NCBI GenBank assembly: GCA_030696105.1
Contig: JAUYNJ010000008.1
Span: 18,030 to 82,029, forward strand
Direction of reading: 5' to 3'
Length of the DNA stretch: 64,000 nucleotides
Source of the DNA: a bacterium
GTDB lineage: Bacteria; Patescibacteriota; Patescibacteriia; Patescibacteriales; UBA12465
Part shown: positions 4,971 through 30,173 of the stretch, piece after piece
How the letters are laid out: each line of letters starts with the position of its first letter
How positions within the stretch are numbered: position 1 is the stretch's first letter
The notes under the pieces: model-generated
Told to the model about the DNA's origin: nothing
Database searches by the model: none
The model's input: only the letters and a program-made list of their open reading frames with translations
Position numbers and translations under genes: made by a program

Positions 4971-5717
4971 ATGAAATTAGATATTTCTTTAGCTCCGGAG
5001 ACTTTATTTTATATTGGTTCAGTAGCTATCTCAAATTCCTTCTTCTGGTTATTAGTGCTCACCTTTTTTATATTGGTCGGAGTCTTTTTCTTAAATAGAA
5101 GTTTAAAGATGCGACCAGGCAAAGTTCAAAATGTTTTTGAAATGTTGCTAGCCGGCGCCTTCGATTTTGTCGAAACTACCGTCGGAAGCAAGAGTCTGGC
5201 TCAGAAAACTTTCCCCTTAGTCTTTACCTTGTTTTTCTTCATTCTAGTCAGCAATCTCATCACTTTTATACCTGGACAAGCGGCTGTTACGATTGAAACA
5301 GCTGGTGGAGTTGTTCCTTTATTTCGCGCTATTATTGCTGATTATAGTTTAGTGTTTATGATGACCATGCTTTCGGTTCTGATTACTCAGATTGTGGCTA
5401 TCTACGTTGCTGGCCCCTTCCGTTATCTTGGTCGTTTTTTGAATTTTACCAGTCCTTTAAACTTTTTCTTAGGTTTGATGGATTTAATTGGTGAGGTGGC
5501 AAAAGTTATGTCCCTCTCCTTCCGTTTATTTGGTAATATTTTCGCCGGCGAAGTTTTGGGGGCGGTGATGCTATTTTTATTCCCATTTTTCTTACCCCTG
5601 CCTTTTGCATTTTTAGGTCTGCTAACTGCCGTTGTGCAGGCTTTCGTGTTTGCCGTTTTGACCCTAGTGTTTATCTCGATGGCGGCTACCGTTTCCGAGG
5701 AGTCTGAAGCAGCATAA
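4971..5717 (+). CDS. atpB: F-type ATP synthase Fo subunit a
   Basis: Polytopic protein with the essential-Arg motif SLSFRLFGNIFAGE, in the atp operon context. Confidence 0.9.
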   Translation: MKLDISLAPETLFYIGSVAISNSFFWLLVLTFFILVGVFFLNRSLKMRPGKVQNVFEMLLAGAFDFVETTVGSKSLAQKTFPLVFTLFFFILVSNLITFIPGQAAVTIETAGGVVPLFRAIIADYSLVFMMTMLSVLITQIVAIYVAGPFRYLGRFLNFTSPLNFFLGLMDLIGEVAKVMSLSFRLFGNIFAGEVLGAVMLFLFPFFLPLPFAFLGLLTAVVQAFVFAVLTLVFISMAATVSEESEAA

Positions 5718-5732
5718 TTTAAAAAAATATAA

Positions 5733-5984
<252 letters not shown>

Positions 5985-26096: not shown

Positions 26097-26178
26097 ATAC
26101 CTATATTTTAACGGAAAAAGCGCTTAGTGGAAAGGAGGCGACAAAAGTAAGAAAAAAAGCCCGTCAAGGGCTCTTTTT

Positions 26179-27573
26179 TTAGTTTAATCCAGTGCTGCCG
26201 AAGCCTTTTTCGCCTCGTCCATCGCCCACGTCAATTGGGCCCTCCTCGACGCTCGGTGTTTCAATCTTCTGGATGAGTAGTTGCGCAATCTTTTGGCCCG
26301 CTTGCACGTGATATATATCTTCACTTAAATTCTTAAATACAACTTTTATCTCGCCGCGATAGCTAGCATCAATCACGCCGCCCATAGTTTTAAAGCCCTG
26401 GCTAGCGAGGCCGCTTTTATCCCAAATGAGGCCGACATAGCCCTCCGGGATTGAAAAGCGCAATCCTGTGGCAATAGCATCTTGCCCATAGGCTGGTATC
26501 GAACAGTCTTCACAGGCAAACAAATCTAAGCCGGCGTCACTCGCGTGGGCTCTCACTGGAAGTTTGGCTTCGGGACGAAGACGTTCGAAGCGAATTGAGC
26601 GCAGAGTGGGCTCTGCTGGTGTATGTGCTTGCGCAAGCGCTGGCTCGTCACCCTGATTGCTCGTGGTCGGAGCGGTGGTCGCCCCTTCTTCGTTTTCGTC
26701 TTCAGGATGAGCGGGAATACCACGAAGGGAACTATTGATATTGGAATGAATTGGAGTGTCTTGTTCTGGATTTATGGTCATAGAGGCTCGAGGAGCATTC
26801 ATTAGTTCTGGCAGATTAGGGGTAACACGACCCTTCTTTACTAAAATATCGCTCACGGCTTGGAAGTCTGGTATTTTTTTGATGCCACCAATACTTAAAA
26901 TGCGGTTAGCATAGAGCCAGACAAGATAATGAATATCCTCGCGACTCATCACTTCGCCATTGCGGGTACATTTAATCAGTCGGAAATCAGGCATGGTCTG
27001 AGCAATTTCAAGATACACTTGCTCCGCTTTTTTCAGATGATCAAGATTTTCTTCGTGAATGTCCTTAGTTTTGCCTTTCCAGTCCTCACGGCCGCGATCT
27101 TTCGCCATTTTTTGCGCGACCTCAGCTTCAACGTGCAGGATTAGGTATAAGTCAGGTTTAGGGATGTTAAATATTTTATATTCAATTTCACTGAGCCAGT
27201 TAAAGAATAGTTTGCGTTCAAGGGCATTAGGAATTTTGCCTCCTTGGTGGGCGAAGCTAGCGGAAACATAGCGGTTACAGACAACGACCTTGCCTTGTTT
27301 CAACCATTCACGAATTTGAAAACTGGCATCAAAACGGTCGGTAGCGTAAAGAATCGAAGCTGCGTAGGGGTTCACATCATCAGCGCCGCCATATTTGCCA
27401 GACAGATATTCTTCCACCATGCCGGCGGACTTGCTGTTATATTGGGGGAAGTCAGCGATTTGGACATCATAACCTTCGGCTTGAAGTTTTCCAACCAAAA
27501 GCTGCAACTGGGTAGTTTTGCCACTGCCATCGGTGCCGTCAATTACGATGAATTTTCCCAAGTATTCCGCCAT
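26179..27573 (-). CDS. Fusion protein: dTMP kinase (N-terminal) + dUTP diphosphatase (C-terminal)
   Basis: The N-terminal ~230 aa carry the Tmk P-loop IDGTDGSGKTTQ and TDRF. A ~100-aa low-complexity linker follows. The C-terminus carries all five dUTPase motifs: SDAGLDL, DKSGLA, GGVIDASYRGEI, GQKIAQLL and RGEKGFGSTG. Confidence 0.85.
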   Translation of the reverse strand: MAEYLGKFIVIDGTDGSGKTTQLQLLVGKLQAEGYDVQIADFPQYNSKSAGMVEEYLSGKYGGADDVNPYAASILYATDRFDASFQIREWLKQGKVVVCNRYVSASFAHQGGKIPNALERKLFFNWLSEIEYKIFNIPKPDLYLILHVEAEVAQKMAKDRGREDWKGKTKDIHEENLDHLKKAEQVYLEIAQTMPDFRLIKCTRNGEVMSREDIHYLVWLYANRILSIGGIKKIPDFQAVSDILVKKGRVTPNLPELMNAPRASMTINPEQDTPIHSNINSSLRGIPAHPEDENEEGATTAPTTSNQGDEPALAQAHTPAEPTLRSIRFERLRPEAKLPVRAHASDAGLDLFACEDCSIPAYGQDAIATGLRFSIPEGYVGLIWDKSGLASQGFKTMGGVIDASYRGEIKVVFKNLSEDIYHVQAGQKIAQLLIQKIETPSVEEGPIDVGDGRGEKGFGSTGLN

Positions 27574-27644: not shown

Positions 27645-28199
27645 TTAATATTGTATCTTAGCGATCAATTTGTCAATCTGGTCGTATAAATCTTGAAGTG
27701 TACCCTCGTTACTTAGGTGATGGGTGGCCGCTGCCATAGTTTCTGGTATTTGTTGTTCGGCCTCGCGCTCACTATCTTCGACAAACTGTTCAAACGTCTT
27801 ATCAGCATCACCAGCGTTTTCATTTCTCTTTTTCATGCGCTCGTACCTTGTCTCTGGCGATGCATCAATGCTAATTAGATGAAATCCAGGCAAGTCTTTG
27901 AGGCTGACAATATCATCTAAACGCCTCACACCGTCAACTACTACAATATCCTTGTCGCTATTTTTTACATCCTCGGCAATAACTTGCGCTAAGATGTCGC
28001 TGCCAAAGCGATTACGTAAATCAAGCGAAAGGTTTTGCATGTTCTCTCTGGAAATTGGCTGATATATTCGGCCTAAAATATCACGCAGGCAGGTTGAAAA
28101 TTTTGTAGTATCCGCATTATGCTTTTCCGTGATATAACGCTGGCAGACATCCTTGCCACTAGCGAGCTTACCGACGAAACCAAGAATTAGTTTGGGCAT
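27645..28199 (-). CDS. P-loop nucleotide/nucleoside kinase-like protein (specificity unknown)
   Basis: 184 aa with Walker A GFVGKLASGKDV, an SGKD-type loop as in dNMP-kinase and dephospho-CoA-kinase-like proteins. It is embedded in the thymidylate operon. Confidence 0.55.
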   Translation of the reverse strand: MPKLILGFVGKLASGKDVCQRYITEKHNADTTKFSTCLRDILGRIYQPISRENMQNLSLDLRNRFGSDILAQVIAEDVKNSDKDIVVVDGVRRLDDIVSLKDLPGFHLISIDASPETRYERMKKRNENAGDADKTFEQFVEDSEREAEQQIPETMAAATHHLSNEGTLQDLYDQIDKLIAKIQY

Positions 28200-28203
28200 A
28201 AGC

Positions 28204-29499
28204 TTACTGTTGTTTCATTACAATGTCATGTGTGCCACGGCGAACGTCCCAGTCATCAAGATCAAGGTCACAATGAAGTTTCACTTCAGGTAGATTTTCC
28301 TGCATAGCGTGAAACATTTTATGGGCAACACGTCTAAGGCTAGGGTGAACTGTTTTACCAGAGCGAAGCTCGGTGACATAAACAACGGAGGTAAGAGGAT
28401 TAGTGATATGACAGAAAACATTGAAACCCATAGCAGTATAATATTGCTTGGTTTCAGCGCTAGCTTCAAGGCTATCAATCATCTCTTTTTGCTTTGCGAT
28501 GAGAGTCTCCGCTTCAACCCTGAGGCTTTCTGGCAGCTGCTCTAAATACCAAGACTGGAAACCGAGCTCAGTGGTAAGCAGTGGAGTGCGGGAGATGGCG
28601 CTACGATGGCGTTGAATATCCCGGTAGGAACCGTAGTCGAGTAGAAATTCAAAACGACAACTACCGAGATCGCTCACGAAATAGGGGAGGTTTGTTTTAA
28701 TGGGACGAGTGTCTAATGCCTCAGAATATTTTTTAAGCTCTTCACGGTTAATGTCATGGGAGAAAGCGAATTCTTTTGGATTCTCTGGAGCAAAGTATGA
28801 GTATTTGGCCGTCATTTCGTGGCGATATGCTTCTTGTTCCGGATATTGGGGGTGAGAGAAGCTATTCTCGTACTTACTGCGCAGTTGATTTAAAATTTGG
28901 TCAGCTAATTCACGCATTTCTGCCAGGGGATGATGTCGAAGCAGGGAAAGCTTATCCCAAGCCTGGCGCAGATTTGTATGCCAACTCAATTGAGTGGTAA
29001 CGCCGGCTGGTAAAAAGCCACGCATGATATCAAAAGCACGAGCGTTAATGGCTTTGTCGTAAATTTTTTCATCTTCTTCTTCGCGACGGGGATATTTTTC
29101 CTTTAAAAATGGCTTTAAGGTTTCTTGACCGGAAACATAAAAATCCATCCAATTTTTTAAAATAAGTTTTGACTGATCTGTCGCGATTGGATCAATTATT
29201 GCCTGGCTGGCCATGTCGATATAGCGAGTACTGGTTTCTTGCCCGCTATACAAAGGCCAGTCTTGGATAGCCTTATCAGCCAGAATGCTCAATCCTTCAA
29301 TGAAAATAGTGGTGCTTCCGCAATCAGCAATTGAGGAGTGACCGTAGCCCACGTAAAAGGTGGACATAAACTTACCGCTGCCGCTCTGTCGGACCTTCTC
29401 CACATGTTCTTCAACACTTTTAGGACTACGCGAATAAAGCGCCTGCATCATCGCTGTATCTTCTGGGCTGAATTCGTCGTAAATAAAAACTTTAGCCAT
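28204..29499 (-). CDS. thyX: ThyX-like flavin-dependent thymidylate synthase, double-domain (431 aa)
   Basis: The N-half has GHSSIADCG...GLSILA...SGQETSTRY, a ThyX-like S-x-RY without RHR. The C-half has DIQRHRSAISRT, with RHR present. It sits between a dCMP deaminase gene and kinase genes. Confidence 0.7.
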   Translation of the reverse strand: MAKVFIYDEFSPEDTAMMQALYSRSPKSVEEHVEKVRQSGSGKFMSTFYVGYGHSSIADCGSTTIFIEGLSILADKAIQDWPLYSGQETSTRYIDMASQAIIDPIATDQSKLILKNWMDFYVSGQETLKPFLKEKYPRREEEDEKIYDKAINARAFDIMRGFLPAGVTTQLSWHTNLRQAWDKLSLLRHHPLAEMRELADQILNQLRSKYENSFSHPQYPEQEAYRHEMTAKYSYFAPENPKEFAFSHDINREELKKYSEALDTRPIKTNLPYFVSDLGSCRFEFLLDYGSYRDIQRHRSAISRTPLLTTELGFQSWYLEQLPESLRVEAETLIAKQKEMIDSLEASAETKQYYTAMGFNVFCHITNPLTSVVYVTELRSGKTVHPSLRRVAHKMFHAMQENLPEVKLHCDLDLDDWDVRRGTHDIVMKQQ

Positions 29500-29503
29500 A
29501 AAA

Positions 29504-30001
29504 TTATTTCATATCTTTATAAATAACAAATTCCTGCGAGAGCAGGGCGAACTCGACCTTTGCGTCAGCGAAAATTTCTTTGCTGCGTGTACCAGTGTGA
29601 TAATCCTGGGCACAAACAACGCGTTTAATACCAGCATTGATAATCATTTTGGCGCAGGTATAACAGGGAGTCATCTTGCAATATAAAGTGCCACCATCAA
29701 GCGAGATGCCCATACGGGCGGCTTCACAAATTGCATTTTGTTCGGCGTGGGTGGTGCGAATGCAATGGCGGCTAGTTGTGCCGTCTTCATGCGTGACGGT
29801 ATGCATTTCGTGTCCAACTTCATCACAGTGGGGTGCTCCGACAGGCGAGCCGACGTAGCCGGTAGCGACGATGCGACGGTCACGAGTAATGACACAGCCA
29901 GCGCGACCGCGGTCACAAGTACCACGAGTGCCAACCATCTCAGCGATCTTGATAAAATACTCATCCCAGGTGGGACGAACGTAAGTCGTTTCCTCACTCA
30001 T
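29504..30001 (-). CDS. dCMP deaminase (ComEB-type cytidine/deoxycytidylate deaminase)
   Basis: 165 aa with the zinc motifs HAEQNAI and PCYTCAKMI. Confidence 0.88.
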   Translation of the reverse strand: MSEETTYVRPTWDEYFIKIAEMVGTRGTCDRGRAGCVITRDRRIVATGYVGSPVGAPHCDEVGHEMHTVTHEDGTTSRHCIRTTHAEQNAICEAARMGISLDGGTLYCKMTPCYTCAKMIINAGIKRVVCAQDYHTGTRSKEIFADAKVEFALLSQEFVIYKDMK

Positions 30002-30173
30002 ATGATTATATTTAACGAGATTATAATAGTAGTTACATTGTAGTATAGAAAACTGAATTATTAAATATTGACAATACGACCTTATTCTTCTTAACGTTGA
30101 TTTTTTCCTTTAAACAAGCTAAACTAGGAATAAGAATTTAGTTGATTATTCGTTGAAAATTAGTGATAAATTT

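Follow-up and report, generated by a model that had tools for sequence, protein, structure and literature searches.

A Patescibacterial gene joining dTMP kinase and dUTPase domains through a variable linker predicted to be disordered

We analysed a 64,000-nucleotide stretch of a bacterial contig (JAUYNJ010000008.1, positions 18,030 to 82,029 of the forward strand; assembly GCA_030696105.1; Patescibacteriota, UBA12465), referred to below as the window, which carries on its minus strand an open reading frame (ORF), here called tmk::dut, that joins a dTMP kinase (Tmk) to a dUTPase (Dut). In the ORF list of the window this frame runs uninterrupted from ATG to TAA and encodes 464 amino acids (aa). 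The original prediction, made from the letters of the DNA alone and silent on the strand, had proposed a single polypeptide containing both enzymes, and profile searches bear this out, with both domains scoring above the curated Pfam and NCBIfam thresholds that we used as cut-offs: Thymidylate_kin (PF02223) covers aa 11-205 with 93.2 bits (cut-off 27) and dUTPase (PF00692) covers aa 335-462 with 96.2 bits (cut-off 22), while TIGR00041 is passed by the Tmk half (92.1 against 83.25) and both TIGR00576 (118.6 against 102.55) and NF001862 (104 against 103) by the Dut half. By sequence search, the nearest solved structures to aa 8-192 are those of the Mycobacterium tuberculosis thymidylate kinase (1g3u/4unp, 78 bits), and the nearest to aa 326-463 are trimeric dUTPases (chain 3c3i, 95.7 bits; human DUT 2hqu, 89.8 bits). 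The equivalog NF005923, which represents the Actinobacterial/M. tuberculosis-type dTMP kinase, scored 120.6 bits, under its cut-off of 193; judged by these matches, the Tmk domain resembles the M. tuberculosis type without being a member of that equivalog. A weak Pfam DCD match overlapping the Dut domain (21.8 bits) also stays below its cut-off (27).

The motif strings on which the original prediction was founded are all present at the expected places, namely IDGTDGSGKTTQ (aa 11-22) and TDRF (78-81) in the Tmk domain, SDAGLDL (345-351), DKSGLA (385-390), GGVIDASYRGEI (398-409), GQKIAQLL (426-433) and RGEKGFGSTG (453-462) in the Dut domain, and a linker string at aa 266-322 between them. The dUTPase motifs within these strings are AGLDL (motif I, 347-351), KSG (II, 386-388), GVIDASYRGE (III, 399-408), GQKIAQ (IV, 426-431) and the RGEKGFGSTG string itself (V). 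Residue conservation was read from a 28-sequence alignment of homologues with 55-91% identity. In the Tmk domain the P-loop residues G13, D15, G16, G18, K19, T20 and T21 are invariant, as are FPQY (42-45), D79-R80, N100-R101-Y102 and the lid arginines R160/R162. In the Dut domain A347, G348, D350, S387, G398, G399, D402, E408 and Q431 are invariant, and Y405, R406, G407, R453, F458, G459, S460 and G462 are at least 90% conserved. All five dUTPase motifs are, on this alignment, kept, including the catalytic Asp (D402) and the sugar-discriminating Tyr (Y405) of motif III and the C-terminal arm with the P-loop-like motif V, and closer alignment thus turned up no loss of the catalytic residues, a possibility that had been raised at the outset. 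One homologue (P0097) ends before motif V. No second tmk or dut, and no mazG, tdk or thyA, was found in the 64-kb window.

The AlphaFold2 (AF2) monomer model, built with the 28-sequence alignment, contains two confident domains, with a helix at aa 211-229 closing the Tmk domain and the strands of the Dut domain beginning at aa 328. Its predicted template modelling score (pTM) of 0.49 leaves the two domains without a defined relative orientation, and the predicted local distance difference test (pLDDT) falls below 50 at aa 230-244 and 248-321, so that the linker between the domains is predicted to be intrinsically disordered. Together with the range of linker lengths in the family, these monomer predictions give no sign of a fixed inter-domain geometry. 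The linker contains 12 P, 10 A, 9 T and 8 E, a single aromatic residue and a net charge of -5, and its entropy is 3.90 bits against 4.0-4.15 in the domains. The earlier description of a low-complexity tether of about 100 aa rich in Pro, Thr and Glu therefore stands as regards its length (96 aa) and, once Ala is added, its composition, but the term low-complexity mildly overstates an entropy of this size, and the proximal third of the linker holds a conserved motif.

Across 163 distinct fused proteins the linker is 45-115 aa long (median 69) and always in frame; it is rich in N, P, E, K, T and S, and W, Y and C are nearly absent. Mean pairwise identity in these proteins is 8% in the distal linker versus 73% in Tmk and 66% in Dut. 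A similar pattern is seen at close range: in an alignment with a 90% identical relative (P0002, locus L001) the Tmk domain, proximal linker and Dut domain are 96-98% identical, and the distal linker has 37% identity and 14 gap columns. At the nucleotide level, a distal-linker tract of about 85 nt (minus strand, 26599-26690 in the window; about 2565-2650 in L001) has zero similarity between flanks that are about 90% identical, which on this comparison looks like abrupt replacement or indel turnover and not gradual divergence. Divergence of the linker through compensated frameshifts was considered and rejected, as the DNA alignment with L001 shows this tract without similarity and not a change of frame.

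Within this variable tether a few islands are kept. The proximal motif (Table 1) takes the form K..FQA(I/V)S(D/E)I(I/L)..N.Q(I/L)..N across the family, with F237 in 145, I243 in 134 and N253 in 127 of the 163 fused proteins, and it is missing from the unfused Tmk of two related loci (L070 and L071). AF2 docks it on neither domain (pLDDT below 50). The distal island AHPE[DE] is kept in 26 of the 30 closest relatives though the linker around it is only 15-37% identical, and other clades have distal islands of their own, (N)YQP being present in 50 of 68 proteins of the group that comes next, and NLPx in 12 of 59.

The fusion is conserved among relatives. We surveyed one genome per GTDB species, of which 277 contained a relative, and checked the reading frame at the best 80 loci: Tmk and Dut lie within one stop-to-stop frame at 66 of them. 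In a separate database comparison, both Pfam domains were present in all of the best 120 clusters (52-100% identity), which come from Falkowbacteria, Parcubacteria and Patescibacteria metagenome-assembled genomes (MAGs). The original prediction had set down a stop or frameshift within the linker as the observation that would split the gene in two; conservation of the single ORF, in 66 of 80 loci and 163 distinct proteins, excludes this. An identical protein is deposited at NCBI (P0001) under the name 'dUTP diphosphatase'; members of the family are called 'dUTP diphosphatase' at NCBI and 'dTMP kinase' at JGI, each label covering one half. Many MAG records with the Patescibacteria-type operon described below (L005, L006, L007, L012 and others) bear titles such as 'uncultured Gammaproteobacteria bacterium', 'Bacillota bacterium' and 'Nanoarchaeota archaeon', which look unreliable for taxonomy. 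Since these loci have the operon in common, the Gammaproteobacteria and Bacillota labels on several of them were set aside as products of bulk submission.

In the window, tmk::dut closes a series of four tightly spaced genes that share its direction (Table 1), with gatB lying beyond a terminator-like hairpin that probably marks the end of the operon; both this hairpin and the promoter-like site upstream of the first gene are consensus matches only. The wider neighbourhood consists of housekeeping genes (gatB, miaA, miaB, glycosyltransferases and a murA-like gene).

Table 1. Features of the tmk::dut locus (window coordinates)
Feature	Position	Strand	Basis or remark
Whole tmk::dut ORF	26179..27573	-	464 aa + stop codon (stop 26179-26181); ORF list
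dTMP kinase (Tmk) domain, aa 1-229	26887..27573	-	profiles, invariant residues, solved relatives, AF2 fold
Inter-domain linker, aa 230-325, 96 aa	26599..26886	-	AF2 pLDDT; length and identity across 163 fused proteins
Proximal-linker motif, aa 232-258, K..DFQAVSDIL..K.R...N	26800..26880	-	conservation across fused proteins
Distal-linker island AHPED, aa 288-292, clade-specific	26698..26712	-	AHPE[DE] in closest relatives
Homotrimeric-type dUTPase (Dut) domain, aa 326-464, motifs I-V	26182..26598	-	profiles, conservation, solved relatives, AF2 beta fold
Terminator-like hairpin + T-run	26152..26178	-	directly 3' of stop; 11-bp stem, 4 GC pairs, loop 5
P-loop kinase, 184 aa (UPF0200/AdkA-like)	27645..28199	-	profile and structure matches; immediately precedes tmk in nearly all related loci
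ThyX-like thymidylate synthase, 431 aa, divergent	28204..29499	-	Pfam Thy1 71.3 bits vs 24.8
dCMP deaminase (ComEB-like), first operon gene	29504..30001	-	Pfam dCMP_cyt_deam_1 82.3 bits vs 25; position conserved
Promoter-like site	30064..30037	-	upstream of dCMP deaminase; consensus match

The thymidylate synthase of the window is thus encoded by a separate gene, and its place in the operon is filled in two ways in the family. With gene order checked and identities assigned by Pfam, the order dCMP deaminase, ThyA, DHFR-like, kinase, Tmk, Dut, GatB was found in 39 loci and the order dCMP deaminase, ThyX-like, kinase, Tmk, Dut, GatB in 22. Counting fused genes only, about 41 loci have the fusion beside ThyA and DHFR and 20 have it beside a ThyX-like gene. 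In L001, the 90% identical relative, the position of the window's ThyX is taken by ThyA/DHFR. Since ThyA plus DHFR or a ThyX-like gene occupies the same slot even among close relatives, the fusion is indifferent to the type of thymidylate synthase. A coupling specific to ThyX was accordingly rejected, ThyA plus DHFR holding the same slot in about two thirds of the fused loci. In a comparison of the slot between the window (28204-29499, minus strand), L007 (4028-5362) and L001, the second gene of the ThyA slot is DHFR/RibD_C-like, and thymidylate synthase seems to have undergone a recent non-orthologous displacement in situ.

Two of the neighbouring proteins are themselves unusual. The ThyX-like protein is about twice the usual ThyX length, with Thy1 covering aa 17-208 only (its N-terminal half) and an RHR-containing stretch, QRHRSAISR, in its C-terminal half; TIGR02170 gave 31 bits, below its cut-off of 87.9, and a sequence search returned no match among solved structures. 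Its layout suggests that it may be a duplicated or extended form. The 184-aa kinase matches archaeal UPF0200/AdkA-like proteins, which are uncharacterised (SSO1041, 3h0k/3lw7, 46 bits), as well as PRK08356 at 77.5 bits, below cut-off, and from the position of its gene we would only guess at a (d)NMP kinase.

Not all relatives carry the fusion. At L070 and L073, tmk and dut are two genes (encoding 228 and about 150 aa) that keep the same place and order but lie in different frames, with practically no spacer. At L071, L075 and L078 an unfused tmk is preceded by a gene for a 109-aa MazG-type pyrophosphohydrolase (5605-5934 in L071), located between the kinase gene and tmk, and no trimeric dut was found at these three loci; the MazG-type gene is possibly a non-homologous dUTPase/dCTPase substitute. 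At L072 (5974-7314) and L077, and also in P0125, Tmk is fused to thymidine kinase (Tdk) in proteins of 442-446 aa (Pfam TK, 94 bits). This Tmk::Tdk fusion joins consecutive salvage steps, and just upstream of it L072 has an unannotated ORF of 328 aa (4995-5981) without a Pfam match.

A wider phmmer search was made against 1.84 billion representatives clustered at 50% identity, in which the whole close clade forms one entry, and the best 150 representatives were sorted by architecture. They included another 15 Tmk::Dut proteins (334-446 aa) whose spacers are shorter, a single Dut::Tmk of reversed order (P0135, 376 aa), one Tmk::Tdk, 42 plain Tmks and 87 proteins of about 550-780 aa in which the same type of Tmk is N-terminal to a long tail (e.g., P0144, P0148, P0161 and P0167). 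The profile of these long-tail proteins aligns with the ThyX-like protein of the window (hhalign probability 90.8%, E = 1.2e-6), and two of them match Thy1/ThyX directly; their consensus shows 'PRNELDL' and 'TPRYGY', and the RHR motif is not evident in it. On these profile matches, the long-tail proteins may be Tmk::ThyX-like fusions whose second domain is inactive or altered. Two other proteins, P0232 (518 aa) and P0238 (477 aa), have three tandem dUTPase domains per chain, a single-chain pseudo-trimer.

The Tmk-to-Dut architecture itself is already known, which answers the question, left open in the original prediction, of whether it had been catalogued: it occurs in baculoviruses, and many NCBI and JGI entries contain it, named by halves. 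The baculovirus TMK-dUTPase fusions (PeluSNPV pelu112, ErelGV erel005 and OpMNPV op031) were described in Sci Rep in 2016 (PMC4895240); expression of such a fusion made AcMNPV DNA replication faster and raised occlusion-body yield 2.5-fold, and the authors noted that the dUTPase N-terminus projects outward and that the viral tmk groups with baculovirus cp016-type genes (PMC4895240). As in the protein studied here, Tmk is N-terminal, a dUTPase of the trimeric type is C-terminal and the active-site motifs of both are kept, and in a Foldseek search of viral structures (BFVD) our AF2 model matches OpMNPV O10287 across both domains at 15% identity. The baculovirus proteins, in contrast, are compact and lack a long disordered linker (O10287 has 317 aa, compared with 464 aa here), their tmk belongs to the cp016-type lineage whereas the Patescibacteria Tmk is closest to the M. 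tuberculosis type, and their context is that of viral auxiliary genes whereas tmk::dut lies in a chromosomal housekeeping operon beside gatB, miaA and miaB. Comparison of the sequences and contexts indicates that the bacterial fusion likely has an origin independent of the baculovirus one. A phage counterpart was sought by tblastn in 50,697 phage records, which gave 1,214 single-domain matches but no place where 80% or more of the query was covered; a phage origin, or phage counterparts with both domains in one place, were rejected on this result. Apart from the baculovirus work, no paper on a bacterial Tmk-Dut fusion was found in the open-access literature and bioRxiv, which is not proof that the bacterial fusion is undescribed.

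Other known arrangements differ from tmk::dut. In the usual bacterial state, represented here by L070 and L073, separate Tmk and Dut proteins have the same domains, motifs and gene order (kinase, tmk, dut, gatB) but are encoded by two genes and lack both the 45-115-aa linker and the proximal motif. The DCD-DUT enzymes of Methanocaldococcus jannaschii and M. tuberculosis are bifunctional dCTP deaminase-dUTPases that carry out two reactions in one domain with one active site. They resemble the present protein in being bifunctional, in serving the dUMP/dTTP supply route and in having a dUTPase fold, but they are single domains, whereas the present protein tethers two folds that are unrelated to each other, and its DCD match stays under the threshold. 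The DHFR-TS of protozoa is the classic channeling fusion, with consecutive reactions and a fixed geometry. It likewise places two thymidylate-cycle enzymes in one chain, yet the reactions of Tmk and Dut are non-consecutive and their linker is disordered and variable. Finally, the Tmk::Tdk, Dut::Tmk and Tmk::ThyX-like fusions draw on the same M. tuberculosis-like Tmk subfamily and differ in their partner domains and order.

We consider it probable that tmk::dut encodes a bifunctional enzyme whose independent dTMP kinase and dUTPase modules sit on a disordered, fast-evolving tether, that it was formed by fusion of neighbouring tmk and dut genes, and that it serves co-expression and co-localisation rather than channeling. 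Both activities, the trimerisation of the Dut domain and the selective reason for the fusion are inferred. The N-terminal domain would convert dTMP and ATP to dTDP, and the C-terminal domain would hydrolyse dUTP to dUMP and pyrophosphate. The fusion would have joined tmk to the adjacent dut, the last two genes of a conserved operon for dTTP supply with the order dCMP deaminase, thymidylate synthase, P-loop kinase, tmk, dut. Its chief benefit is probably that, in a very small genome, the synthesis of dTDP and the removal of dUTP are necessarily co-expressed in equimolar amounts and co-localised. The order Tmk-then-Dut would leave the C-terminal motif-V arm free to close over the active site of the neighbouring subunit, with the N-terminus of the dUTPase directed outward. 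Many Tmks phosphorylate dUMP too. More speculatively, a tethered dUTPase could thus also counter the dUTP fed by the dUMP side reaction of its own kinase.

The thymidylate synthase step (dUMP to dTMP) lies between the reactions of Dut and Tmk. For this reason the original prediction had proposed that the fusion brackets ThyX, for the purpose of channeling or co-assembly. This part of it does not hold in the face of some 41 fused loci with ThyA plus DHFR against 20 with ThyX, of a disordered linker and of steps that do not follow one another. Direct channeling of substrate between the two domains is unlikely; it is not expected because the reactions are non-consecutive, the tether is disordered and variable, and the fusion is kept beside either ThyX or ThyA. 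A looser functional association is weakly suggested by the conserved operon, by the linker motifs and by the Tmk::Tdk and Tmk::ThyX-like fusions in relatives.

Several observations do weigh against simple tethering of two independent modules. The linker is not featureless, since it contains the proximal motif of about 27 aa family-wide and clade-specific distal islands (AHPE and YQP), and these could be docking motifs, hinting at something beyond passive tethering. Relatives fuse the same type of Tmk to Tdk or to a ThyX-like domain, as selection for physical coupling within the pathway would lead one to expect. As regards the origin of the gene, a neighbour-joining tree of Tmk domains, computed without support values, nests unfused forms inside the fused clade, and fission and repeated fusion are therefore indistinguishable.

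The main rival reading is a thymidylate 'metabolon', which generalises the idea of the original prediction and in which the Dut trimer would form the core, the tethered Tmk domains would dimerise within or between trimers, and the linker motifs would recruit the synthase or some other partner, so that dUTP would be carried to dUMP, dTMP and dTDP in one assembly. A conserved operon holding all the pathway steps, a fusion-specific motif and clade-specific islands in an otherwise unconstrained linker, and Rosetta-stone-type fusions of the same Tmk family with Tdk, with a ThyX-like domain and with Dut in reverse order all speak for such an assembly. We nevertheless think it rather unlikely, because the operon synthase switches between unrelated ThyX and ThyA (with DHFR) among close relatives while the fusion is retained, the linker motif is docked on neither domain by AF2, linker length varies 2.5-fold, and some relatives do without the fusion, having two separate genes or, where Dut would be expected, a MazG-type gene. 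A more specific version, which is slightly more doubtful, takes the linker islands to be docking peptides and the Dut trimer with its three Tmk domains to be the hub of a dTTP-synthesis assembly of Patescibacteria that would recruit whichever synthase is present, or else the 184-aa kinase, dCMP deaminase or the replisome. Such a hub would be in keeping with the repeated appearance of Tmk::Tdk and Tmk::ThyX-like fusions in related lineages.

Some phage dUTPases act as signalling proteins, and one of the two domains might in the same way be catalytically dead or repurposed, for example if the dUTPase were a regulator of the kinase that senses dUTP or dUMP. We regard this as improbable. Nothing in the protein points to it specifically, the nearest observation being the partial dUTPase match of two distant shorter fusions (P0124, 37.5 bits; P0131, 26.2 bits), and in the protein and its clade there is little or no variation in the five dUTPase motifs or in any of the nucleotide-binding motifs of Tmk. 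A second tmk or dut was not found in the 64-kb window. Least credible of all is an artefact, be it an error of sequencing or assembly that merged two genes or an overlooked stop codon in the linker. A few related loci are broken or odd, but the frame is open in the window, and the same single ORF recurs in 66 independent genomes and, with linkers that differ widely in length yet stay in frame, in 163 distinct proteins, so that a frameshift or missed stop is effectively refuted.

The odd loci are two in particular. L059 (5938-8727) contains a stop-to-stop frame of 929 aa that reads through from Tmk and a shortened Dut into gatB, GatB being present from residue 64, and in L067 the Tmk and Dut parts lie in different frames. 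Both are probably assembly errors or deletions in those MAGs.

The family opens no new mechanism and no long-standing question; as a conserved single gene of tiny Patescibacteria, tmk::dut is a neat example but not a very remarkable one. Provided that both halves are active, the family would be a large bacterial counterpart of the baculovirus TMK-dUTPase. Since the databases name its members by one half only, tmk or dut can be counted as absent by mistake when the metabolism of Patescibacteria is reconstructed. With its separate genes, short and long linkers, reversed order, other partners and swaps between ThyX and ThyA, the family also offers a natural series on the value of gene fusion in streamlined genomes.

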